Part shown: positions 2,490 through 31,758 of the stretch, piece by piece
Position numbering within the stretch: the stretch's first letter is position 1
How the letters are laid out: each line of letters starts with the position of its first letter
Assembly: GCA_036689235.1 (NCBI GenBank)
Contig: CP144769.1
Span: 148,481-180,480, forward strand
DNA from: Candidatus Saccharimonadota bacterium
Lineage (GTDB): Bacteria; Pseudomonadota; Gammaproteobacteria; Enterobacterales; Enterobacteriaceae
DNA length: 32,000 bases
Direction of reading: 5' to 3'
Notes under the pieces: model-generated
What the model was told of the DNA's origin: nothing
The model's input: the letters and a program-made list of their open reading frames with translations, nothing else
The model's database searches: none
Position numbers and translations under genes: made by a program

Positions 2490-2797
2490 TTATATTATAT
2501 AATAAATTATTATTATAATTTTAAAATATAAATAAAAATAAAAAAAATATTAAATATTTTAAAATAAATTATTTAATTATTATATTTTAAAAAATACTTT
2601 TTTTATAAAAAAAATAAAGTAAAATAAATATTTTTTTGTAAATTTTAATATAAATATTTTACTATATTATATTTAAAATATTTAAAATAATAAATAATAA
2701 TAATATATATTATAATATTAATTATTTTTTAATATTATTAATATATTATAAAAATAAATTAATAAAATTAATTATAAAAATATTAAATAACATAATA

Positions 2798-3448
2798 ATG
2801 AATATTAATAAATTATATAAATTATTAAAATTTTCAAATAATAAAAATAAAAAAAAAAATTATAAAATAATAAGAAAATATTTAAATACAATATTATTAT
2901 TTAATTTATTTATATTTATTATATTAATATATTTATCTAAAATATTAATTTTAACTTTTTTAAAATATAAAAAAATAAATATTAATTTAATATCAAAAAA
3001 TATAATAAATTATTCAATAATAATATTTCCATTAATAATAAATAAAATATTAATATATTTTTTATATTTAAATAAAAATAAAAACAAAAATAATAAAATA
3101 TATATTTTTATATTAATATTTATACAATTATTAAATATAATTATTACTAAATTATTTAAATATTCTAAATTATCATCATTAATTATTATATCTCATTATA
3201 TAAATATAATTACAATTTATTTAAAATTAAAAAAAAAAAAAATAATAAAATTAAAATATAAATATAAAAAATTTATTTTTAAAATAATAATATCTTATAT
3301 AATAATAATATTAATATTAAATTATATAACAAAAAATTTAATAAAAAATTTTATTAATCTGAACTTTATATCCAGATTAATAAAATTATTGTTAATATTT
3401 AGTATTAATATATCCTCATATATATTTATATTATTAAAATTAAAATAA
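2798..3448 (+). CDS. Hypothetical multi-pass membrane protein (orphan)
   Basis: A 216-codon ORF with no TAA or TAG. That is very unlikely by chance here, since about 9% of random triplets should be TAA/TAG. It has 5-6 long Ile/Leu/Phe-rich hydrophobic segments separated by Lys/Asn loops. I recognise no family motif. It follows a 308-bp spacer that is nearly pure A/T. Confidence 0.5.
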   Translation: MNINKLYKLLKFSNNKNKKKNYKIIRKYLNTILLFNLFIFIILIYLSKILILTFLKYKKININLISKNIINYSIIIFPLIINKILIYFLYLNKNKNKNNKIYIFILIFIQLLNIIITKLFKYSKLSSLIIISHYINIITIYLKLKKKKIIKLKYKYKKFIFKIIISYIIIILILNYITKNLIKNFINLNFISRLIKLLLIFSINISSYIFILLKLK

Positions 3449-3999: not shown

Positions 4000-4935
4000 T
4001 TAAATTAAATTATTTAAAGTTGATAAAAAATTATTATTTAAATTAGAATATAAATTTATATTTTTTTTAAAAAAAGGATGAAAAAAAGATAAAAAATAAG
4101 AATGTAAAAATAATCTTTTTATTTTATATTTTTTTAAAAAAAATTTATTTTTTTTTTTATTACCATAAATATTATCACCTATAATTGGATAACCTAAATT
4201 ACTAGTTTGTAATCTTATCTGATGATTTCTACCAGTAATAGGAATTATTTTTAATAAAGTATATTTACTATAATATTTTTTAACAAAAAATAAAGTTTTA
4301 GATAATTTACCATTATTATTATAATTATTTTTATTAATATAAGAAATATATTTATTTTTAAATATATAATTTTCTATAATTTTAATATTAAAAGGTCAAA
4401 TTCCATTTATTAAAGCTATATATTTTTTTTTAATTTTATTTTCTTTAAAATTTTTATGTAAAAATCGTAACATATTTAAATTTTTAGAAATTAATAAAAT
4501 ACCAGAAGTACTTTTATCAATTCGATGAACTAATTCTAAAAATTCTTCATTTTTATAAATATATTTAAAAATATCTATAATATTTAAATTAATTTTACTA
4601 CCTTTATGAACAGAAATACCATATGGTTTATCTATAGCTAAAATATATTTATCTTCATAAATAATAAATTTTTTAAATTTATCTATAATATATTTATCAA
4701 TATATATTTTTTTTTTTTTAATATTTATTAAAGGAATTCTAATTATATCATTTATTTTTAATTTATAATTATAAGAAATACGTTTTTTATTTACTCTAAT
4801 ATTTCCTTTACGTAATAAAGAATATATTTTATTTTTAGGTAAAATTTTAATAATTTTAAATAAATAATTATCAATTCTTTGATTTACATTATTAATATTA
4901 ACTTTAATAAAATTTAAAAAAAACTTTTTAACCAT
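4000..4935 (-). CDS. rluC: 23S rRNA pseudouridine synthase, RluA family (RluC-like)
   Basis: 311 aa after reading through TGA at 4396-4398. It has an S4-like N-terminus (QRIDNYL...LLRKGNIRVN), the catalytic motif HRIDKSTSGILLISK, and PITGRNHQIRLQ near the C-terminus. It is divergent from rne, as rluC is in E. coli. Confidence 0.85.
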
Positions 4936-6237: not shown

Positions 6238-6378
6238 TATTTATATTAATATAAAAAATAAATATTATCAAATAATTATAAATTAATAATAAATTTAACA
6301 AAATACATATTATATAATAATTTTAATTTAATAAATTAATATATTAATATATTTTTTTTTAAAAAAATAAAATAAAAA

Positions 6379-8844
<2,466 letters not shown>

Positions 8845-8846
8845 TA

Positions 8847-9608
8847 ATGAAAAAAATACATTTTTATAATATAAAAAATATAAATTTAAATAAAAAATAT
8901 AAAATATTTTTTATAATAGGAAACGATTATATAAATAAACAAAATTGTAAAATATATATTAAAAAAAAAATATTATTATTTATAAAAAATTTTAATATTA
9001 TAAATATAATAATAAATAATAAATATAATTGAAATAAATTAGAAAATATTATAATTAATAAAAATTTATTTTCAAAAAAAAAATTAATAATCATAAATAT
9101 AATAGAAGAAATAAATAAAATAAATAAATATATATATAAATATATAATTAAAAAAATAAAAAAAAATAATATTATATATTTTATAATAAATTACAATTTT
9201 GATTATTTAAAAAATATAAATTTTAAAAAAAAACATAAAAATATTTTAATAATAATATGTAAAAAAAATATTATTTATAATAAAAATAATATTTTTTATA
9301 ATAAATATATAAATTCTAATTATATTAAAAATATAATTTTATTAATTTATAAAAATAAAATAGAAAAAATATTTTATATAATTGATAAAATTAAAAAAGA
9401 AAATTATATTAAAATAATATTATTAAATATAATATTTAAATATTTTATAAAAAATTTACATAAATATAATAAATTTGAAACCAAAAAAATATTAAATTTA
9501 ATAAAAGAAAACGAAATAAATATTAAAAAAAATATTAATATAAATTGAATAAATTTAAAAATATTATTATTATTAATAATAAATAAAAATATATTAAATA
9601 TATATTAA
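8847..9608 (+). CDS. holA: DNA polymerase III delta subunit (shortened)
   Basis: 253 aa, fully hand-translated; it starts 2 nt after the leuS stop. The N-terminus IFFIIGNDYINKQN...N-W-NKLENIIINKNLFSKKKLIIINI parallels E. coli HolA YLLLGNDPLLLQE...DWNAIFSLCQAMSLFASRQTLLLL. Its position immediately downstream of leuS supports the call (E. coli order is leuS-lptE-holA). Confidence 0.75.
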
Positions 9609-9617
9609 TTATATAAT

Positions 9618-11489
9618 TTAAAAAATTAATTTTTTAATAAAATTATTACATTTATTATTTTTTTTTTTTATACAATTTAAAAATATATCTTTATTAGAAT
9701 AAATAGTAATTTTTTTTTTAGCTCTAGTAATAGCAGTATATAATATTTCTTTATTTAAAATATTAGAAAAATAATTAGGTATAATTAATAAAATATGATT
9801 AAATTCAGATCCTTGAGATTTATGTACAGTAATTACTCAAGTTAATTTTCAATTAATAAAATTATTAAAATAAATAATTTTATATTTATTATTAAAATCC
9901 GGAAAAAAAATTTTTATTATATTATTTTTATAAACTATAAATCCTATATCACCATTAAATATATTTAAATCATTATTATTTTTAGTAATTATAATTGGTT
10001 GACCAACATAATAAAATTTATTATTAATAATAATATATTTTTTAATATATTTATTTAAAAATAAATTATTAATATATTTATTTAAATATTTAGAACCTAA
10101 TATAGAATTTTTTATTATAGATATAATTTGAAATTTATTAAAATAATATAAAAATTTATTATATTTAAGATTACTACTATTTAAATAATTAATATAATAT
10201 TTATATTTTTTTAAACATAAATTAATTAAAAAATTATAATTAAATTTATCTGAATCATAAAAATTTATATTACAATTAAAATTATTATTAATTATAAATT
10301 TATCAATTTTATTATAATCACCATAATTTATAAAATTAGAAAATATATTTAAATATTTATTTTTTTTAAAACGATAATTTTTTAATAAAAATGATATATT
10401 ATTATTTAATTTATTAATATTTAATAATATTTTATTAAAATTTATTTTCTTTTTTAATAAAAAATTTAATAATTTACTTTTTTTTTTAAATAAAGAATAA
10501 TTATAATTACATATTTCATTTAAAAATGAACAAGATTCTACAGGACCTATTTGATTACTATCTCCTAAAAATATTATTTTTAAAAAATTATCTTTTAATG
10601 AAATAAGTAAATAATATAATGTGACTACATCAATCATAGAAAATTCATCTATTATTAAAATATTAAAACTTAAATTATCACTTTTATTAATATTTATTTT
10701 ATTAAAATTTAAATAATTTAATAATTTATGTATTGTTGTAGCTTTATTTGGTAAAATATTATAATATTTTTTATTAATATTTAATAAATTATAATTTTTT
10801 TTTAATATATTAGTTAAATTAGAAGAAGATTTTCCAGTAAAAGAAACTATTTTAATAAAATCTTTATCTTTTATTTTATATATTTTATATAAAATTAAAA
10901 TTAATTTAACAATAAGAGTAGTTTTACCTGTACCTGGTAAACCAGAAATAAAAGATATTTTATTAAAAAAAACATTTAAAATACAAATTTTTTCATATAT
11001 ATTAAAATTATTTTTTTTTATTATATTAAATATAATATTTATTTTTTTTTTTTCTATTATACTATTTTTATTAATATTTTTTTTAAAAAAAATTACTATA
11101 TAATTTTCATATATTCAAAATTTATATAAATAAATACAATCTTTATATAATATAAAAGGAGTTATATCATTTTTATAATAAAAACTTATCAAATTATATT
11201 TAAATAATATATTTATACTATTATCAATATTTATATATTTATTAAAAAAATATATTAAAAAATTATATATATATTTATTAAATATACTTTCATTAATTAT
11301 TCTATAAATTGGAAGACATGTATGTCCTAATCTACTAGATAAACTAACTAAAAAACTAAATAACATAATAATAGAATAATTAAAATTATTTTTTTTAAAA
11401 TAAAATTTTGAAAAATATATTTCTAATAAATTAGCTTCTTTTCTTTTATAACATGATCATAAAAAATTTTCTATTTCATTAAAATACAT
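9618..11489 (-). CDS. recD: Exodeoxyribonuclease V alpha subunit RecD
   Basis: 623 aa. Track ORFs 9849-10637 and 11115-11366 are in one frame, and I found no TAA or TAG between them. Matching segments: GHTCLPIY and PFILYKDCIYLYKFW (E. coli GHVCLPL, PMILCGDRLYLNRMW), Walker A ISGLPGTGKT, IIDEFSMIDV, IFLGDSNQIGPVE, and the C-terminal VITVHKSQGSEFNHILLIIP...ILYTAITRAKKK. Confidence 0.9.
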
Positions 11490-11501
11490 AACTAATACTT
11501 A

Positions 11502-14500
11502 TTATTTTTTTAACAAATCATTTAATTTAAAAATTAATTTTTTATTAGGTTTAATAAATAAAATACCATTATAAGATCTATAATTATTTTCAATAAATAA
11601 ACCTCTCATGAAAATATAATATATACCACCAAAATTTAAAGAATAATCATAATTTTTAATAAATAAATTTAAATAATTATGTAAAGCAATAGAATATATT
11701 TGATATTGAATATCATACCTTTTAAAAATTATATTTTTTATAATATTAGTTTTATTATAATATAAAATATTATTACCAAATCAATTTGATTTATAATCAA
11801 CAATATAATATTTTTTTTTATATAAAAAAATTAAATCTATAACACCATTTAAATAACCTTTAATATATTTTTTTATACTTAAATTATCACATAAACATGA
11901 AATTTTATCATATTTATTTATAATAATATTATATTTACTAAAATTAAATTTTTTTATATTCAAAAAAAAATCAAATTCTTTTAATAAAAAATTAATATTA
12001 ATATTTATTAAATTTATATTTAATGGATATAAAATAACATTTAATATATTAAATAATATTTTTTTAATATTAAAAAAATATTTTTTTTTAATATCAAAAA
12101 TATACATATATTTTAATAAAAAATTATTATTTATATTTTTATTAAATTTAATTTTTTCTAAAATTTTATGAAAAAATAATCCTACATTTTTACCTTTAGG
12201 TAAATTAATAAAAAAAATATTTTTATTTAAATTATTATTATTATAATTATTAATTAATAATTTATTATTTTTATTTAATAAAATAATTTTAGAATAATTA
12301 ATTATTTTATTAAATATTATTTTTTTTTTATTATTTATATAATTATCATCTAATAAATATTTTATAATATAAAAATTATTTTTTTTTATATAATTAATAA
12401 TATTAATAAAATTAAAATTAATATATTTACACTTATTAAAACTAAAAATTTTATTATTAATTTCAGAAAAATTAAAATTTTTATTATTACCTATAATTCT
12501 ACCTATAGAACTAAAACAAAATTTTAATTTTTTATTAAAATTTTCATATAAAATAATATTACACATATATACAGATCTAGTAATAGATACATATAATAAA
12601 CGCATTTCTTCAGAAATTATTTCTTCATTCATTAAATTATTATATTTTTTAATACCTAAAAAATCTATATTAGTTTTACAATTTTTACGATTATGATAAA
12701 TATTAAAATTAATATTATTATTTGAATAAAATAAAAAAGGTATTCAAACTATATTATATTGTAAACCTTTTGATTTATGTATAGTAGATATTTTAATTCC
12801 ATTATTTTCATAAGAAAAAGAACGTAAATAATATTCTTTATTATTATTATTAGAAGAATTATTAATTTTATTATTTAATCAAATTAATAATAATAATTTA
12901 TCATTAATATAATAAAATTTTTTTTCTAAAATTTCAGATATATGTAATATATTTAAATTATATTGTTCATTTTTATAATTTAAAAAATTATTAATATTTT
13001 TATTTTTTATAAAAAAATTTAATAAACAATAAATACCATATTTATTTAAAATATTATAATAATAATAAAAATCATCTATAATTTTTATATATAAATTATT
13101 ATGATTAATAATTTTATTTATATCATTTAAATTATAATTAAATAAATTAGTAGACAAAGCATTTCTAATATTTAATTTTGAATTAGGAAAAATAACAGCT
13201 TTTAATAAAAAATAAATTTCTTTAGCTTCTAAAGAATCAAAAACATTACTTTTATTTAATATACAATTAATGGGTAAAAAAAATTTTTTTAAAGTATTAA
13301 AAAAAATTTTTATTTCATAATTTTTACGAACTAATATACAAATATCAGAAGGTAATATTTTTCTTTTATTTTTATTATTTTTATATATATAAATATTATT
13401 GGAATTTAAAATTTTATATAATTTTATTGAACAAAATTTAGCTATTTTATTTTTATAATTTAAATTATTTAAATTATTTAATATATAAAAATTCATACTA
13501 TTAAATATTTTATTTTTATTTTTAATAATTAAATTTTTATTTTTATAAGAAGGTAAAATAGATAAATAATTAGTATCTTTAAAAATAAATGGATTATTAA
13601 TTTTATTAAATAAAAAATTTATACTTTTTACTAAAAAAAAAGAAGATCTTCAATTAATATTTAATATATATAAAAAATCAATATTATTTTTAGATTTAAT
13701 ATAACTAAATATATTAGCTCCTCTAAACGTATATATTGATTGTTTTGGATCACCTATAAATATTATTTTTGTGTTATCAAATTTATTTTTTATATATATA
13801 TTATAAAATATATTATATTGTAAAAAATCAGTATCTTGAAATTCATCTATTAAAGATAAAGGATAATTTTTTCTAATAATTTTTATAAAAGAATTATTAT
13901 AATTATTAACACTTAATATATTATTTAATTTACTTATTAAATCATTAAAACTAATAAAATTATTTTCTTTTTTATAGCAATTTAAATTATCTTTAATATA
14001 TTTTAAACATTTAAATATAACAAAATTATATAAATTATTAATTTTAATATATAATTTTTCTATTTTAATAAAAATATATTTAATATCTAAATTTATAAAT
14101 AATTTATATTTAATAATATATTTATATTTAAATTTTTTTAAACAATAAGGAATATAAAAATTGATAGTCTTAGAATTACATCATAAATTTATAATATTAA
14201 ACCAATTATTTATAATTTTATTATTAAATAAATTATAATAATTATTTAAATTAATAAAAAATACATAAATATTATTATAATTTTCAATTCATTCTTTTTT
14301 AAATTTATTAATAAAAAATATAATTTTATTATAACAATCTTCAATAGAATTATATTTTTTAATATTATTAAATTTAAAATCAATAAAATTTAAAATAGGT
14401 AATATAAAATTATATAATTTTTCAGGAGTAGATCAATAAAAAAAAATTATTTTACTTAAATTATAAGATAATTTATAAAAATATTTACGTCAAAAAAATA

Positions 14501-14981
14501 TTATCATTTTATAAATTAAATTATATTCATAATCTAAAATTTTTAAAGAATTATTTATATTAGAATTAATAAAATAAGAAAATAAAATTTTTTTACAAAA
14601 ACTATGTATAGTATATATAGAAGAAATATCAATATTATTTTCATATTGTATTAATATATCTAGTATATTAGGAATATTTTTAATATATAAAAATATATGT
14701 TTTATATAATCATTTAAAAATATATTTTTTATAAAACAAATACGTAATTTTCTTAAATTATTAAGTATTCTTTTCTTAATTTCTAAACATGCTAAATCAG
14801 TAAAAGTAACAATTAATATATTATTTATAAATAAATTTGAAAATTTATTTTCTATATTTATATTTAATAAAAAACGTAAATATAATAAAGATAAAATATT
14901 TGTTTTTCCAGTACCAGCCGATGCTTCTATTAAATTAGATTTACCTAAGTATATATTTAAAAAATCTATATTATTTATCAT
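11502..14981 (-). CDS. recB: Exodeoxyribonuclease V beta subunit RecB (helicase-nuclease)
   Basis: 1159 aa. I hand-checked all inter-fragment gaps (12633-12878 and 13497-14489) and found only TGA, no TAA or TAG. Matching segments: LIEASAGTGKTNILSLLYLRFLL, LIDEFQDTD, IGDPKQSIYTFRGANIF, NINWRS, HKSKGLQYNIVWIPF, LLYVSITRS, the nuclease motif GVIDLIF...YYIVDYKSNW, and RYDIQYQIYSIALHNYL...FGGIYYIFMRG. Confidence 0.93.
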
Positions 14982-14993
14982 AAAATTAAAATA

Positions 14994-17900
14994 TTAATAA
15001 TATTTTATATTATTAATTATTAAATTATTAAAAACAGGTAATAATCATTTTTCTATTTTATTTATTATAAAATTAATATTTAAAAAATTATAATATTTAT
15101 TAATTATATAAGATATATAAATATCATTTATTTCTCCTTTAATAAAAAAATTTCCATATAAAATATTAAATAATTTTTTTTTAGCTTTAATAATATAGTT
15201 TTCATTTAATAAAATTTTATTATTAATATTATAAGCAGATAATATTCATATATTAGAAGATTTAGGTAAAAAAAATAAAGGATAATTATAACTATTTAAA
15301 TATGCATTTACATATTTATTAATATAATAAATACATTTATATTTATTTATTGGTTTTAAACATCATATTCCATTATAACCATATAAATAACTATAATTAA
15401 TACCACCTTTATAACAATATACTAAATGATCTATTCAAAATAATAAAGCATCTATTAAATTTAAATTTTTAGGTAATCATTTAATTAAACCTAAATTATT
15501 ATATTGATTAATATAACCTTTTATATAAAAATTATGAAATTTTACATTTATAAAAACTTTATTAATTTTAAAATAATATTTCTTAATATTACTAATTAAA
15601 TAAAAAATATTTTTTTTTTCTTTTTCTCATAATATTTTACCAAAATAACTTAAAGGTAAAAAATTTAAATTTTGTAAATATAAAAAAATATTTTTATTAT
15701 ATCCATATTTTATAAAAATATCTATTATTTTATATCTAAAAAAATAAATTTTTTTAATATCTAAATCAAAATATTCATTTTTACTAATATATATATTAGA
15801 AATAAAATAATTTATTTTATGAAAATAAAATAAAAAATATTTAATAGGATTAGATCAAAAATTATGTAATTCATTTAAACTAATAATATATTTTTTTTTA
15901 TAAGTTTTAAAATAATTTTCTTTATTTATATAATTAAAAATATTTAAATTATATTTTTTAAATATTATATTTCTTTTTAAATAAATATATTTTTTTTTAT
16001 TTAATTTACTAAAAAAATTTTTATATAAAAAAATATTTATATAATTTTTAAAATAAACTAATAAAATAGAAGGAAAACAAAAATTATTTTTTAAAAAACA
16101 AAAATTAATATAACTTATATATAACTTATCACAAAATAAAATTTTTTGTAAAAATAAATATTTATCATAACTTATTTTATCACGATCACCTAATCTTGAA
16201 TTAATATTAATTAAATTAAAATCACAAAAATCTTTATTTTTAGGATACATATTTTCATTCATACCTATTAAACATGTAATTTTAAAAAATAAAGATTCAG
16301 AATAAATAAATGAACAAAAATTTATAGAATTTATAGAATATATTTTTTTTTTATTTTTATTTTTTAAAAAAAATATTAACATTTTTTTAAAAATATTAAT
16401 ATTTATATATTTATTAAATTTATATATATTATAAATATCTATAATATTTAAAAAATTTTTTTTATTTAAAAATATACTTTTATTAATATATTTCTTATAA
16501 AAAAAAGTTTTTATAAATTTTATACAAATAAAAATTCAATTATTAAATAAATATTTTTTATTTAAAATATCTTTTCAGTATAAAATTTTAAAAATAAAAT
16601 CACATATTTTTTCTATTAAATTATAATAAAAATTATTAGAAAAAAAATTATAAGGTATAATATTATTTCAAATACAATTTTCATTATTTATACAAAAACC
16701 TAATAAAATTCTTTTTAAACTATTTATTCAACTTAAATAATTAAATTTTTTAAAATTAAAAATATCATTTTTAGAATTTACATTTAAACCTATATTTTTA
16801 ATAATATATATTATAATTTTTAATTCTTCATAATTTATATTAAATTTTTTAAAAATTATTTTTTTTTTTAAAAAACACAATAATTCAATAAAATTAAATT
16901 CTAAATTAGATATATTTAATAAATTTAAAAAAATGTTTAATAATTCATTTTCATAAATATTATTACATTCTAAAATTTTATATGGTAAATATCTTTTATA
17001 TTTTAAATCAGAAAAAACAGATTTAATATATGGATAATATTTATTAATATTAGTAACATTTACTATTATGTCACTAGGAACAATATTTTTATTTATAATT
17101 AAATCTAATAAAAAATTTTTTAAATTTATTATTTCTTCTAAATAACCATAAGATTTATTAATTATTATAGAATCATCTTTATTAAAATTTTTATTTTTAT
17201 TATTTATAATAACATCTTTAAAATTTAAAATATTATTTTTAATAATATCCAATTTACTTTTTTTTTTTATATTTAAAAAATAATTTATTTCTTTTATATT
17301 AAATTGTAATAATAATAATAATAATTCAGAAAGACTTTTTCCATAACTTAATAATAAAGAATTATTATTATTTTTATTTTTATAAAAATTAAAAATTAAT
17401 AAATCTTTTTTTAAATTATTTTTATTAAAAATATTATTTTCTTTATTATTAAAATAAAATGTTTCATATCAAAATTTATAAGAAGGATTAAATAAAAAAT
17501 AATAAATATTTTTATAATTAGATATTAAATATAAAATATTTAAATAAATTGGAGGTATAAATGAAATATTAAATATACAAATATAATCAATAAAATTTTT
17601 AGGAAAAATAAAATTTTTATTTCTTAAAATTTTTAGAATTCTAATATAAATATTAGATTTATTTCACTTATATGAAAAATTATTAATAAAATATTTTATT
17701 ATTTTTCTTCATAATATAGATTGTCATTTTTGATGTAAACAATCAATATTTTTAATTAATTTATAATTACTTCATTCATATAACCAATCTATTCTATACA
17801 TCAAATATTCATCAAATATATTAGATATTTTTATAGATAAATTAAACAATTTATTATAATTATAATCATTTTTTAAATATTTTTTAATAGAATAAAATTC

Positions 17901-18221
17901 CTTTAAATTAATAACTTTAGGTAATATATTAAATATTATTCAAACTAAATTATATTTATTAAAATAATATTTTTTTGATAAATTAGATATATTTTTTTTA
18001 CAAAATTTTCATATAAAATCACCTATTAATAAAAACTTAAAATTTGCACATATACCTATATTTTCAGATAAAAAAATTTTTAAATTTAAAGATATATTAT
18101 TATTAGAAACTAATATAAATATTTTTGATAAAAAAATATTGTTTATAATATTTTTTTTAATTATATCTAAAATATTTTTTTTTAAAATATCTAAATTATT
18201 AGATTGATACAATATAAACAT
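14994..18221 (-). CDS. recC: Exodeoxyribonuclease V gamma subunit RecC
   Basis: 1075 aa. The three track fragments (15855-16382, 16728-17252, 18009-18221) are in one frame, and the hand-scanned gaps contain only TGA. The N-terminus MFILYQSNNLDIL...GICANFKFLLIGDFIW matches E. coli MLRVYHSNRLDVL...GIAANIDFPLPASFIW. NIFDEYLMYRIDWLYEW matches DLFDQYLVYRPDWLAQW. There is a 12-nt gap to the recB start. Confidence 0.9.
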
Positions 18222-18232
18222 ATACTTAAAAA

Positions 18233-18751
18233 ATTAATTAATAAATTTTTTATAAAAATTAAATTATTTATAATTATAGACATAAATAATAAAAAAATAC
18301 AAAAATAATAATCATTTTTTTTATTTAAAAAAAAATAAAAAATAGGAATTCTAAATTTTATTTTATAAGGTCATAAAAAAAATACACCTTTATAAGTAAA
18401 CATATCACAAAAAATATGACTAAAATAACCTAAAAAAATAGCAAAAATTATATCAAAATTAAATTTTAAAAAAAATATATTAATATATATAATAAATAAA
18501 ATCAATAATATTAAACCTAAAAAACTATGAGTAATAGTTCTATGTCCAAATAAATTAAATATCATAATAGATATAAATTTAAATTTATATCCTAAAAAAG
18601 ATCTAGGATGGTCTATATCAGGTATTAAACATGATAAAAAAGAAATAGGAATAATACGTAATAAATCTAAGTAAATATTTAATTTTTTTAAAAATTTTCA
18701 AAAAAAAATTATAAATGATAAACAAAAAATTAAATGATTTTTTACACACAC
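18233..18751 (-). CDS. ydjM: Inner-membrane metal-dependent hydrolase YdjM family (DUF457)
   Basis: About 172 aa. LSCLIPDIDHPRSFLGYKF, FGHRTITHSFLGL and LGYFSHIFCDMFTYKGVFFLWP match E. coli YdjM (LLPDIDHPKSFLG, FGHRGFTHSLL, GYLSHILADMLTPAGVPLLWP). There is no in-frame ATG near the N-terminus. I propose a GTG start at 18749-18751, preceded by AGG at a 6-nt spacing; ATT at 18755-18757 is the alternative. The stop is 11 nt upstream of the recC ATG. Confidence 0.8.
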
Positions 18752-18858
18752 AAAAATCCTATTTTATTTAATAAAAATTAATATATAATTATAATAAAGT
18801 TTTAAATTATTTAAAATATAAAAAAATTTAAATATGAAATATAATAAATAATATAAAT

Positions 18859-20058
18859 ATGTTAAAAAATAGAGATCATAGAATAATAAATAAAAATTTA
18901 AATTTATATCATATTAGTAATATATCACCAGGAATGGTTTTTTGACATCAAAATGGATTTATTTTATTAGAAAATATAAAAAATATAATAAGAAAGAAAT
19001 TAAAAAAATATAAATATGAAGAAGTAAATACTACATTTTTGATAGATAAAAATATATGAATTAAAAGTGGTCATTGAAAAAATTATAAAAAATATATATT
19101 TCATACAAAATATAAAAATAGAATATTATGTATAAAACCTATGAATTGTTTAGGACATATAGAAATATATAAACAAAAAATAAAATCTTATAAAGATTTA
19201 CCTATTAGAATATCAGAATTTGGAATATGTCATAGAAATGAAAAATCTGGATCATTACATGGTTTAATGAGAACAAAATCATTTATTCAAGATGATGCAC
19301 ATATATTTTGTACTAAAAAAAAACTTAATATAGAAATATTAAAATGTATAAAAATGATTTATGAAGTATACAAAATTTTTAATTTTAAAAATATAAAAAT
19401 ATTTTTATCTACAAGACCAAATAAATATTTAGGTAATAAAAAAATATGAAATAAAATAGAAAATAAAATTATTAAATTATTAAAAAAAAAAAATATAAAA
19501 TTTAAAATTAAAAATGAAGAAGGTGCATTTTATGGTCCAAAAATAGAATTTATTTTAAAAGATTGTTTAAATAGAGAATGACAATGTGGAACTATTCAAA
19601 TAGATTATTTTTTACCTAAAAAATTAAAAATTATATATATTAATAAAAAAAATATAAAAAAAAATCCTATAATTATACATAGAGCAATTTTAGGTTCATT
19701 AGAAAGGTTTATAGGAATAATTATAGAAGAATATAATGGAAAATTACCAGTATGATTAGCACCAATAAAAATAGTAGTAATAAATATTTCAATAAAAAAT
19801 TTAAAATATTCAAAATATGTATTAAATAAATTAATAAAAAATAATATTAATTCTATAGGAGATTTTAAAAATAAAAAAATAAATTATAAAATAAAAAAAT
19901 ATACTTTACAAAAAATACCTTATATAATAATATGCGGTAATAAAGAAGAAAAAAATAAAATAATAAGTGTAAGATCATATATAAATAATAATTTATATAA
20001 AATAACATTAAAAAAATTTATTAAAAAAATAAATAATAAAATAAAAAAATTTAAATAA
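18859..20058 (+). CDS. thrS: Threonyl-tRNA synthetase, catalytic core plus anticodon-binding domain only
   Basis: 399 aa, fully hand-translated. It starts [29 protein letters not shown], which aligns to about residue 240 of E. coli ThrRS (RDHRKIGKQLDLYH..APGMVFWH). The Zn ligands are kept ([23 protein letters not shown]). An in-frame TAA at 18829-18831 and the ydjM start at 18751 leave no room for the N-terminal domains. Confidence 0.95.
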
Positions 20059-20065
20059 GGATAAA

Positions 20066-20599
20066 ATTATTAAAATTTATAAAAATAAAATATATTTTAA
20101 AAAACATAAAATTAATAATGAAATTAAAAATTATAAAATAAAATTAATAAATAATATTGATAAAAATAAAAATATAATTTTAACTACAGAAGCATTAAAA
20201 ATAGCAAAAAATCTTAATTTAGATTTAGTAGAAATAAATCCTAATTTTAATCCACCAATATGTAAAATATTTGATTATGGAAAATACATATATAAAAAAA
20301 ATAAAAGTAATAAAAAAAATATAAATAATAAAAAAATACAAATAAAAGAAGTAAAATTTAAATTTAATACAGATAAAAATGATTATAATATAAAAATAAA
20401 TAATATAATTAAATTTATAAAAAAAAAATATAAAGTAAAAATATCAATTATATTAAGGGGAAGAGAAATAATACATAAAAACTTAGTAATTAATATGTTA
20501 AATAATATAAAAAAAAAAATAAATAATGATAAAAAAATTTTTATAAAAGAAACAATAAGAAATAGACAAATTTCAATGATATTAATACCAAAAAAATAA
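20066..20599 (+). CDS. infC: Translation initiation factor IF-3 (non-ATG start, probably ATT)
   Basis: KINNEIKNYKIKLIN...TTEALKIAKNLNLDLVEINPNFNPPICKIFDYGKYIYKK...IQIKEVKFKFNTDKNDYNIKIN...ILRGREIIH...ISMILIPKK matches IF3 throughout. The frame is open only from 20045 and has no ATG before the conserved region. ATT codons at 20066 and 20069 follow AAGGA (20057-20061). Confidence 0.88.
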   Translation: MIKIYKNKIYFKKHKINNEIKNYKIKLINNIDKNKNIILTTEALKIAKNLNLDLVEINPNFNPPICKIFDYGKYIYKKNKSNKKNINNKKIQIKEVKFKFNTDKNDYNIKINNIIKFIKKKYKVKISIILRGREIIHKNLVINMLNNIKKKINNDKKIFIKETIRNRQISMILIPKK

Positions 20600-22162: not shown

Positions 22163-22177
22163 TAATATGGTATAAAA

Positions 22178-24424
22178 ATGAAATTTCATATAAAGTGAAT
22201 TAAAAAATATATAAAAAATAATTTAAATATTAAAAATATAATTAATTTATTAAATAATAATGGTTTTGAAATAAATTGTATTAATTTATATAAAAATAAA
22301 AAATATATAATAAAAAAAATTATATCATATAAAAAATATTCATTAAAATGATCTTATATAAAAATAAAATATAAAAAAAAAATACATAAAATTTATACAA
22401 TATATATTAAAGAAAATATAAAAAATAAATATATTTTAATTAATAAAAAAGATATAAAAAATAATTTTTTTTTTATTAAAAAAAAACAATATTATAAAGA
22501 TTATATTTTTATATTATATAAAAAAAATAATATATTAAATAAAAATATAAAATATTTAAATAAAATAAATTTATTAGAAATAAATATACCTTATAATAAA
22601 ACAAATTGTAATAATATATATTCTATATGTAAAGAAATATCAATAATAATAAAAAAAAAAATAAAAATTAATTTAAATAAAATAAAAAAAATAAAAAAAA
22701 ATAAAATAATTATAAATAATAAATATATAAATAAAAATATAATTAATTATAAATATATAATAATAAAAAATATAAAAAATATAAATAAAAAAATTAATAT
22801 TAATAATGAAAATAAATTAAATTTATTAAATATTAAAATTAATAATAATATAAAAGATATAATAAATTATATATTAATAGAATCAGGACAAAAAATAGTA
22901 TATTTAGATTTAGATAAAATAATTAAATTTAATAAAATTAATAATAAAAATATTATAAAAATAAAAGAAAAATTTCTAATAAAAAAAAATATAAAAAAAT
23001 ATTATATTAAAAAAAATACTAAAAATTTAATTTTAATATCCCCATTATATAATTATAAATATTTTATTAAAAAAAATTTTTATAATAAAAAAATAGATAA
23101 ATATATAAGTAATAATTATAAAAATATACAAAATATATTTTTACAAAAAACTTCTGAAATAATTAAAAAAATATATAAAGGAAATTTAAATAAAATTAAT
23201 ATAATATATAATTTAAAAAATAATAATAAAAAAAAAAAAAATAAAATTTTATTTATAAAATATAATTATATAAAAAAAAAAATAGGTTTTAATATAAAAA
23301 AAAAAAAAATTATAAATATATTAAAATTAATGGAATATAAATTAATTAAAAAAAAAAAAAAATATATTTCTATTAAAATACCAAAATGAAAAAATAATAT
23401 AAATATAGTAGAAAATATTATATCTGAAATATTAAAAATATATGGATATAATAAAATTCCAATTAAAAATTTTAAAACAAATATAATTGTATCAAATAAA
23501 AAAAATATATCAAAAAAAATATATAATATAAAAAATATAATAACAAATATAGGTTATAAAGAAATAATAAATTTTCCATTTACTAATAAAATTAAAGAAA
23601 ATATATTTTTTAAAAAAAAGAAAAATAATATTAAAATATATAATCCTCTATTAAAAAATATGAAATTATTAAGATATTCTTTAATACCAAATATGATAGA
23701 TACATTAACTTTTAATATAAAAAAACAACAACAAGAAAGTATTAGTTTTTTTGAAATAGGAACATGCTTTAAAAAAAAAAAAAATAATAAAATAAAAGAA
23801 ATAAAAAAATTATCTCTATTGAGATATGGATATAAAAATAAAAATAAATGATATATAGAAAATAATTTTTTTGATTTTTATGATATTAAAGGAGATTTAA
23901 TATATTTATTTAAAAAAAAAAATAAAGAAAAATATTTAAATATTAAAAAATCAAATAATAAAATATTAGATAAATATCAAAATACAGATATATATTTTAA
24001 AAATAAAAAAATAGGTTATATGGGTATGCTAAATAAAAAAATACAATATAAATATTCTTTAAAATATTCAATATTTTTATTTGAAATAAAAATAAAAAAT
24101 ATATTATTTAAAAAAAATATTAAAATAAATAAAATATCAAAATATCAAAATAATAAAAGAGATATAACATTAATTATAGATGAAAAAATATCAATAAATA
24201 ATTTAATTAAAACATGTTTTTTAATAAATAAAAAAATAATAAAAAAAATTAATATTATTAAAATATATAAAAACAATGAATTAAAAAAAAATAAAAAAAA
24301 AAATATAACTTTAAGATTAAATATACAAAATAATAAAAAAACATTAAAATCAAATGAAATAAATAATATTATATATAAATGTAAAAAAATATTAAAAAAA
24401 AAATTTAATGCATTAATAAATTAA
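22178..24424 (+). CDS. pheT: Phenylalanyl-tRNA synthetase beta subunit
   Basis: 748 aa. I hand-translated 22178-23400 without meeting TAA or TAG, and track ORFs 23660-23851 and 24020-24424 are in the same frame. The N-terminus is MKFHIKWIKKYI. DIINYILIESGQKIVYLDLDKI matches E. coli [22 protein letters not shown]. Also VENIISEILKIYGYNKIP, LRYSLIPNM, FFEIG, FYDIKGDL, and the C-terminal ISKYQNNKRDITLII...ITLRLNIQ...TL. Confidence 0.9.
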
Positions 24425-31035: not shown

Positions 31036-31758
31036 ATGAACAAATCTATTAAAATTAAAAAAAAAAAAAAAAATTTTTATAGAAATAATTTAAGTAAAAT
31101 ATTAAATTTTTTTTTATATAAAATATATTATTTTAATAAAAAAAACATAAAAAAAATAATAAATTTTTTTAGTAAAAAATATAATTTTCATAATTTAAAA
31201 AAAATATTTAAAAAAATATCTTTTATAATAGATAAAAAAATATTAAATATATATAAAAAAAAAAAAATATATAAAAAAATAAATATATTATATAATTTAA
31301 TAGTAAAATTAAATAATAGTCATATATATATATATATATATATATTATATAATAAAAAAAATTTTTTTTTAATAAAAATAGATTTAGAAATATATACATA
31401 TAAATATTTACCATTAAAAATAATAAATTACTTAATTTCAAAATTTAAATCAGATATAATATTAATTAATTATAAAATAACAAAATTTATAAATAAAAAA
31501 AATATATATAATAAATATAAAATAAAATCATTACAAAATTTTATAAATAAAAAGTATAAAAAAAAATATGATTTACTAGATATAAATTTATATAATGAAA
31601 ATATATTCCAAACTAAAATGATAATTAAAAAAATAAATTTAAAGAAAAATATTTTTAATTATAAAAATAAAAAATTTAATAAAAAAAAAAAAATAAATAT
31701 ATTACAATTAATATGAAAAGAAATTAAAAAAATATATTATAATAAAAAAAAATTATAA
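31036..31758 (+). CDS. Hypothetical Lys/Asn/Ile-rich protein (orphan, or too diverged to recognise)
   Basis: 240 codons with no TAA or TAG (one TGA at 31714). It starts 7 nt after the glnS stop. I recognise no catalytic or family motif. It contains an A17 run (31057-31073, KKKKK) and an in-frame (AT)12 repeat. Its last two codons overlap the 3' end of map on the other strand. Confidence 0.45.
31322..31345. repeat. (AT)12 dinucleotide microsatellite inside the orphan ORF
   Basis: Perfect atatat...at run of 24 nt, read in frame as HIYIYIYI. Confidence 0.9.

Follow-up and report, generated by a model that had tools for sequence, protein, structure and literature searches.

A threonyl-tRNA synthetase without its editing half in a Candidatus Stammera capleta genome, the probable end point of stepwise decay in place

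The window (the whole stretch of DNA that was analysed, 32 kb in length) carries a thrS gene for a threonyl-tRNA synthetase (ThrRS) of 399 aa, which by descent is an ordinary Enterobacterales ThrRS minus two of its four domains. Comparison with relatives and analogy with characterised enzymes make it very likely that this thrS is a functional gene for an enzyme without proofreading, that it represents the end point of a decay in place, and that Thr-to-Ser errors are tolerated without compensation.

Stammera lives with tortoise leaf beetles as their extracellular pectinolytic symbiont. The closest genomic matches of the window were three genomes of Candidatus Stammera capleta (CP144813, CP144815 and CP144817; 244-246 kb each), with 85-86% aa identity. 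Relatives, genetic code 4, AT content and gene order all agree in placing the window in the Candidatus Stammera capleta lineage. The GC content of the 32-kb window was 10.45%, and the thrS frame contained six TGA codons and no TGG codon (TGA = Trp, code 4). With translation table 11, the thrS region yielded only an ORF of 102 aa, and ORF calling fragmented every gene of the window; the window, thrS included, can be read coherently only with genetic code 4. The reassignment of UGA to Trp in Stammera is already published (Salem 2017, as cited in PMC8629427), and Stammera genomes are listed at 216-341 kb with 201-317 CDS (Table S2 of bioRxiv 10.1101/2023.12.12.571295). For annotation, the lesson is that the standard code shows this thrS as fragments, and that pipelines leave the missing domains unflagged.

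With code 4, an in-frame TAA (18829-18831) was followed by a frame open from 18832 to 20058, in which the first ATG was at 18859. The start of the frame after the TAA and the position of the first Met agree with those given in a preliminary description of this DNA. The features of the locus are collected in Table 1.

Table 1. Features of the thrS locus, with positions counted from the first nucleotide of the window.
Feature	Positions	Strand	Description
thrS	18859..20058	+	natural deltaN threonyl-tRNA synthetase, 399 aa + TAA, code 4
Class II catalytic core (tRNA-synt_2b)	19111..19734	+	aa 85-292; Pfam E 1.6e-47
Anticodon-binding domain (HGTP_anticodon)	19768..20037	+	aa 304-393; Pfam E 1.4e-14
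ydjM, divergent	18191..18751	-	inner-membrane protein; Pfam YdjM E 1.6e-25; GTG start at 18751
ydjM-thrS spacer	18752..18858	.	107 bp, 3.7% GC, without remnant of the N-terminal half
infC (IF3)	20045..20599	+	IF3_N and IF3_C domains

Pfam returned tRNA-synt_2b and HGTP_anticodon for the 399-aa product, and no other domain. The TGS (N1) domain was not found in the ThrRS by Pfam, and the region of the N2 editing domain (tRNA_SAD; HxxxH and CxxxH motifs, H73/H77/C182/H186) was missing from it by both Pfam and alignment. The loss of the TGS and editing half had been claimed in the preliminary description together with the proposal of an alignment to domain HMMs, and was thereby borne out. In a phmmer search of the PDB, residues 4-396 of the query aligned gap-free with residues 241-633 of E. 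coli ThrRS (1qf6; E 4.6e-137), close to the start at about residue 240 that had been estimated earlier; the N-terminus of the protein sits 3 residues ahead of E. coli position 241. The same search gave an end-to-end match to the engineered deltaN constructs 1evk/1evl (401 aa), and the match to the solved deltaN-ThrRS structures reached 461 bits, likewise gap-free. Identity to E. coli was 46% over the core and 29% over the HGTP_anticodon domain.

Upstream there is no room for the missing codons, as had been claimed earlier: ydjM starts at 18751 and leaves only the 107-bp spacer. The gene order was kept at all Stammera loci compared, with recB-recC-ydjM followed on the opposite strand by thrS-infC-rpmI-rplT-pheS-pheT. 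As the position of ydjM is the same in long-form and short-form Stammera loci, this gene gives the ancestral limit of thrS on its upstream side. On the other side lies infC, which belongs to the conserved thrS-infC-rpmI-rplT-pheS-pheT cluster; its 5' end lacks an ATG, and it shares 14 nt with the end of thrS, the stop codon included. No tblastn match at E<=1 was obtained anywhere in the 32 kb of the window with N-domain queries (E. coli, Buchnera, the Pedicinus symbiont and four long-form Stammera). The same queries did detect long-form and remnant loci, and gave none at E<=1 for the partly deleted locus L022 described below. These searches were run with default statistics; with SEG and composition correction off, hundreds of spurious K/N/I-rich matches were obtained. 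No tRNA gene was found in the window by ARAGORN, and an Rfam scan of the window at gathering thresholds had no match.

The short form and the ydjM-thrS synteny were common to at least 28 relatives. An architecture of 398-414 aa with a spacer of about 50-110 bp recurred in many independently assembled genomes, and a Logan contig carried a ThrRS 93% identical to the window protein. That the 5' half was removed or concealed by an error of sequencing, assembly or annotation is thus extremely improbable. Mis-annotation would be easy with a gene that looks fragmented under table 11; against it stand the recurrence of the 398-414 aa form in independent assemblies and in the Logan contig, and the TAA, which closes the frame shortly ahead of the alignment at the core boundary. 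Assembly error had been named in the preliminary description as what could overturn the truncation, and it fails on the recurrence of the architecture in dozens of independent assemblies.

The remaining core is conserved where catalysis would require it. The Zn ligands Cys97, His148 and His274 correspond to E. coli C334, H385 and H511, and beside them R363, E365, Q381, D383, Y462, K465, Q479, Q484 and R520 were identical to E. coli. Class II motifs 2 and 3 were present (R363, E365, R520). All of the catalytic/Zn positions (12/12) were invariant across 122 aligned ThrRS (120 database homologues, E. coli ThrRS and the window protein), the 46 truncated ones included. Pairwise dN/dS against six Stammera orthologues was 0.24-0.31 (about 0.25), with dS hard to estimate at 10% GC. 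The dN/dS values and the conserved residues together point to purifying selection on thrS, with the requirements for threonine activation and transfer kept. We infer that the ThrRS retains everything known to be needed for these two steps. By analogy with characterised enzymes, dimerisation, zinc binding, threonine activation and the charging of tRNA(Thr) have most likely all been retained. The view that the core looks functional, put forward earlier from the Cys/His/His Zn ligands and the class II motifs, was upheld by the alignment, in which these residues are identical to E. coli, as a predicted function.

The core might also compensate for the lost half, by a tighter rejection of serine or a strong pre-transfer editing, so that loss of the domain would be near neutral for fidelity. 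Some synthetases without editing do gain specificity (PMC11415595), and in yeast mitochondrial ThrRS the catalytic core carries out pre-transfer editing that depends on tRNA (PMC4267643). However, 31 of 34 pocket residues were the same as in E. coli, and the three that differ (P335L, V376T and V483I) occur in long-form (full-length) relatives too. A scan for substitutions common to independently truncated lineages returned one weak position, H585Y; as the sole position in this convergence scan, and a weak one, it was rejected as a compensatory substitution. Pre-transfer editing on its own did not suffice to prevent Ser-tRNA(Thr) in the ThrRS of E. coli or in the cytosolic and mitochondrial ThrRS of yeast (PMC4267643). 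Compensation by the core is therefore unlikely, and a functional core with uncompensated loss of editing remains the preferred reading.

Relatives arranged by the state of the N-terminal half formed a series of six stages. The first stage, full-length with an intact editing site (H73, H77, K156, D180, C182, H186), was represented in the 122-sequence alignment only by E. coli and two Dasytiphilus sequences. To the second, full-length with the editing residues replaced, belonged almost every Buchnera (YQKDDQ) as well as many other symbionts. In the third stage, Stammera P0014-P0027 had proteins of 581-631 aa, of which the N-terminal 187-236 residues were K/N/I-rich filler; these long forms had no Pfam match to TGS or SAD and none of the editing residues. 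A long-form locus (L021) had identical recC-ydjM/thrS synteny.

The fourth stage was found in CP144825 (L024), where about 780 bp separate ydjM from a core ORF of 410 aa. A remnant ORF of 118 aa in this interval shared 59% identity with residues 1-108 of the long-form P0014; past it, the sequence was frameshifted and stop-riddled, still homologous to the N-terminal half, and an internal ATG has become the new start of the core. In the fifth stage, CP144837 (L022), flanks and core had about 87% DNA identity to the long-form CP144834 (L023). This locus keeps the ancestral start and the first ~5 codons (MIKTK; MIKIK in L023), and relative to L023 an in-frame deletion of about 520 bp joins them directly to the DHRIINK core boundary. 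The sixth stage comprised clean short forms, in which 2-8 residues precede RDHR at the boundary and ydjM and thrS lie 50-110 bp apart; it included the window and L001-L006, L011 and L013.

The preservation of the ydjM/thrS order at every locus means that the N-terminal half was lost in place. A split thrS, with the TGS and editing half encoded separately elsewhere and associating with the core, is in this light highly improbable. L024 does have a separate N-terminal ORF upstream of the core, a transient two-ORF state. Yet that ORF lies in the ancestral position, holds only about 108 residues of the half and no editing residues, and runs into stop-filled frameshifted sequence; the window has only its 107-bp spacer and no match to N-domain queries in 32 kb, and synteny indicates loss in place and no relocation. 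The preliminary description had listed a split gene as a second possible refutation, and the decay of the N-terminal half at its original site in relatives makes it very unlikely. As judged from the residues, the loss of editing preceded the deletion of the domain, since long-form Stammera and Buchnera are without H73/H77/C182/H186. With the editing residues already gone in the long forms, the deletion of the domain itself probably changed fidelity little.

In a neighbour-joining (NJ) tree of the core, the basal Stammera branches were short forms and long forms were nested among short ones, P0018 (long) with P0017 (short) and P0014 (long) with P0011 (short). Because of this nesting, and because regaining about 200 codons is implausible, several independent deletions are suggested. 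Read literally, the tree implies up to nine in Stammera, an uncertain count given a single-gene NJ tree without support values and built from compositionally extreme sequences. At least three Stammera deletions are backed by the distinct molecular scars of stages 4, 5 and 6. Outside Stammera, ThrRS cut to 404-431 aa were found in Enterobacteriaceae that live as symbionts in reed beetles (Donacia, Plateumaris, Macroplea and Neohaemonia), and also in Blochmannia of Colobopsis nipponica and in the P0046 lineage. On balance, the N-terminal half appears to have been excised repeatedly, by at least three routes in Stammera and again in the reed-beetle symbionts, Blochmannia and P0046, at the same boundary and never while the editing residues were still intact. 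If so, Stammera would be a phylogenetically replicated natural experiment on how much loss of proofreading is tolerable, with ThrRS, LeuRS and PheRS taken together. With living intermediates in sequenced sister lineages, it would further reveal whether domains are lost in a predictable order.

The driving forces of this degenerative series would be deletion bias and relaxed selection, in a genome of only about 250 kb. The editing residues would mutate first, the N-terminal half would then become unrecognisable filler, and a frameshift or an excision up to the core boundary (about E. coli 241) would follow. By analogy, a ThrRS without post-transfer editing in cis would release the Ser-tRNA(Thr) that arises from misactivation of serine, and pre-transfer hydrolysis by the synthetic site would be the sole possible remaining check on it. 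The engineered E. coli deltaN-ThrRS is reported to mischarge with Ser (Dock-Bregeon et al. 2000). The organism would then tolerate a low level of Thr-to-Ser substitution without compensation.

The other synthetases of the window point in the same direction. Its LeuRS lacked about 30 residues, had the substitutions T252L, D342N and D345Y, and showed 18% identity over CP1 vs 39% overall. Its PheRS-beta had H265V and E334I, and the B3_4 domain was not detected in it. The editing sites of LeuRS and PheRS-beta are thus predicted to be dead, and with ThrRS three editing activities would be lost in one 32-kb window. Threonine made up 2.2% of the 9,353 residues encoded in the window, so few codons are exposed to Thr-to-Ser error. 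Domains of the tRNA_edit, tRNA_SAD, Tyr_Deacylase and TGS families were absent from the 25 ORFs of the window.

Fidelity could alternatively be kept in trans, by a free-standing deacylase elsewhere in the genome (YeaK/ProXp-ST-type, AlaX-type or ThrRS-ed-like) that clears Ser-tRNA(Thr). Archaea offer a precedent in which a catalytic-only ThrRS works with a free-standing editing protein (PMC4267643), PDB 3a31 matches the query, and the search covered the 32-kb window, ~13% of a genome of about 250 kb. This alternative is nevertheless improbable: neither an editing nor a TGS domain occurs in the 25 window ORFs, and Stammera genomes encode merely 201-317 proteins. Long forms lost the editing residues yet kept the domain, which speaks for a function abandoned and not outsourced. 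As the LeuRS and PheRS-beta sites are dead too, several different trans-editors would be required. Tolerance of Thr-to-Ser errors is suggested instead by the loss of the editing residues long before that of the domain, by the dead LeuRS and PheRS-beta sites, by the lack of a trans-editor in the window and by the rarity of threonine. The preliminary description had posed a choice between tolerated Thr-to-Ser mistranslation and trans-editing; this dichotomy was judged right, and dead editing sites in relatives favour its first term.

For free-living cells, proofreading by aminoacyl-tRNA synthetases (aaRS) is commonly seen as close to indispensable, and natural enzymes without it define how much mistranslation life tolerates. 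The ThrRS of the window is a chromosomal, sole-copy bacterial counterpart of the construct that biochemists made by hand in E. coli, with each intermediate preserved in relatives. The comparative series could be used for Thr-to-Ser error rates and for the role of the N-domain in charging once editing is dead. In a full-text literature search on Stammera and reed-beetle symbionts, no mention was found of thrS, synthetase truncation or editing. The search did not tie loss of the ThrRS editing domain to Buchnera, Carsonella or insect symbionts; Melnikov 2018 may already list cases. The replicated series of stepwise deletions is possibly an addition not reported before. Editing loss in host-restricted organisms is an established trend, within which the ThrRS of the window is expected and overturns no concept.

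Among known systems, the window enzyme is most directly comparable with the engineered E. coli deltaN-ThrRS (242-642; PDB 1evk/1evl/1fyf/1kog), with boundaries within 1-3 residues, a gap-free alignment, 46% core identity and the same Zn ligands and catalytic residues. Unlike that construct, it is natural and under apparent purifying selection, and serves as the sole ThrRS. A bacterial ThrRS minus its editing domain is a dimer with full activation, less efficient tRNA charging and no post-transfer editing (PMC4267643).

The yeast mitochondrial ThrRS is naturally core-only; it keeps pre-transfer editing and accumulates Ser-tRNA(Thr) in vitro (PMC4267643). Like this enzyme (MST1/ScmtThrRS, PDB 3ugq; query match E 2.4e-71), the window protein consists of a catalytic core and a tRNA-binding domain only and works in a reduced genetic system. 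Its origin is independent, as it is of Enterobacterales type (E. coli match E 4.6e-137). MST1 also co-evolved with an unusual tRNA(Thr)1, nothing comparable being known for the window enzyme, and MST1 serves about 8 mitochondrial proteins, whereas the window enzyme serves a whole bacterial proteome. With the crenarchaeal ThrRS-cat (PDB 3a31; query match E 2.7e-42) it shares a catalytic-only polypeptide; those archaea edit by means of a separate ThrRS-ed, whereas none was found in the window, and in the relatives the editing half decayed and did not become a separate protein.

That aaRS editing sites are lost or mutated in Mycoplasma and other host-restricted bacteria is well documented (PMC7373986, PMC10057733 and PMC4014445, with Li 2011 and Melnikov 2018 therein). 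A review among these three sources gives no Mycoplasma as known to have lost three or more editing activities. The window resembles such cases in its reduced genome, in host restriction and in the predicted loss of ThrRS, LeuRS and PheRS editing, for which a 'statistical proteome' was proposed there. It differs from the Mycoplasma cases in that the whole TGS and editing half of its ThrRS is physically gone, not just mutated.

The GC content of the window was 10.45%, and I, K and N together made up 50% of the residues encoded in it; whole published Stammera genomes have a GC content of 13.9-20.4% (Table S2 of bioRxiv 10.1101/2023.12.12.571295, in which the GC column is headed 'AT Content'). Neither tRNA genes (ARAGORN) nor Rfam matches (gathering thresholds) were found in the whole 32-kb window. 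The 262-aa ORF occupies the place after leuS that lptE and holA have in E. coli. The MurJ-like open frame scored 25.2 bits against MurJ (cut-off 27.4 bits), and is probably a decaying flippase gene. The open frames of the RecBCD operon encode 626, 1163 and 1079 aa and take up 8.6 kb, in a genome that totals about 250 kb; the operon adjoins ydjM, the divergent neighbour of thrS, an arrangement conserved in all Stammera loci examined.

Coordinates of the features in the window and in the thrS locus L024 of a relative
Feature	Location	Strand	Description
MurJ-like open frame	window 2654-3448	+	sub-threshold match, C-terminal half of MurJ
leuS	window 6376-8844	+	LeuRS with eroded CP1 editing site
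262-aa ORF	window 8820-9608	+	no Pfam match
recD-recB-recC	window 9618-18233	-	complete RecBCD operon
infC	window 20045-20599	+	IF3 open frame; 14-nt overlap with thrS stop
pheT	window 22166-24424	+	PheRS-beta with replaced editing residues
240-aa ORF	window 31036-31758	+	no Pfam match
thrS N-terminus remnant region	L024 3365-4000 (CP144825.1)		118-aa ORF, then broken N-half

No ATG was present near the 5' end of the window infC frame, while the IF3_N domain begins at residue 23 of that frame, so that a non-ATG start is implied. The infC gene of E. coli likewise has a non-ATG start codon, AUU. Annotations of infC in the relatives comprised just a 52-aa IF3_C fragment, or no call.

Intermediate stages of thrS decay were found in the relatives. 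The 118-aa ORF of L024 had no Pfam match and was 59% identical to residues 1-108 of the long-form Stammera ThrRS P0014; it is the remnant of the thrS N-terminus. Downstream of it the N-half sequence was frameshifted and interrupted by stops, the break lying in an A-rich run, and the core followed as a 410-aa ORF from a new ATG. L022 and L023 come from sister genomes (DNA identity about 87%); relative to L023, about 520 bp inside thrS are deleted in frame in L022 (L022 about 4001-4070 vs. L023 4001-4590), and the ancestral start codon is kept. The ThrRS-like protein P0121 (414 aa; 291,640-bp NCBI contig) had a degenerate N-half and a catalytic core ending after about 414 residues, with the anticodon-binding domain absent from the protein as called. 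A broken thrS, or an artefact of annotation, in a hispine-beetle Stammera may account for it.

The editing region of the window LeuRS matched the Pfam editing-domain model only in part, had about 30 residues deleted and carried the replacements T252L, D342N, D345Y, T248K, R249N and D251N relative to E. coli; identity to the E. coli enzyme was 18% in CP1 vs. 39% overall. No B3_4 (editing) domain was detectable with Pfam in the window PheRS-beta, and the E. coli editing residues were substituted (H265V and E334I). In the Stammera relatives, B3_4 was still matched in the PheRS-beta of the long-form locus L021, weakly matched in L022 and not matched in L023. With the leuS and pheT sites eroded on top of ThrRS, three editing activities appear to have been lost in one organism, whereas, according to one review, no Mycoplasma is known to be missing at least three.
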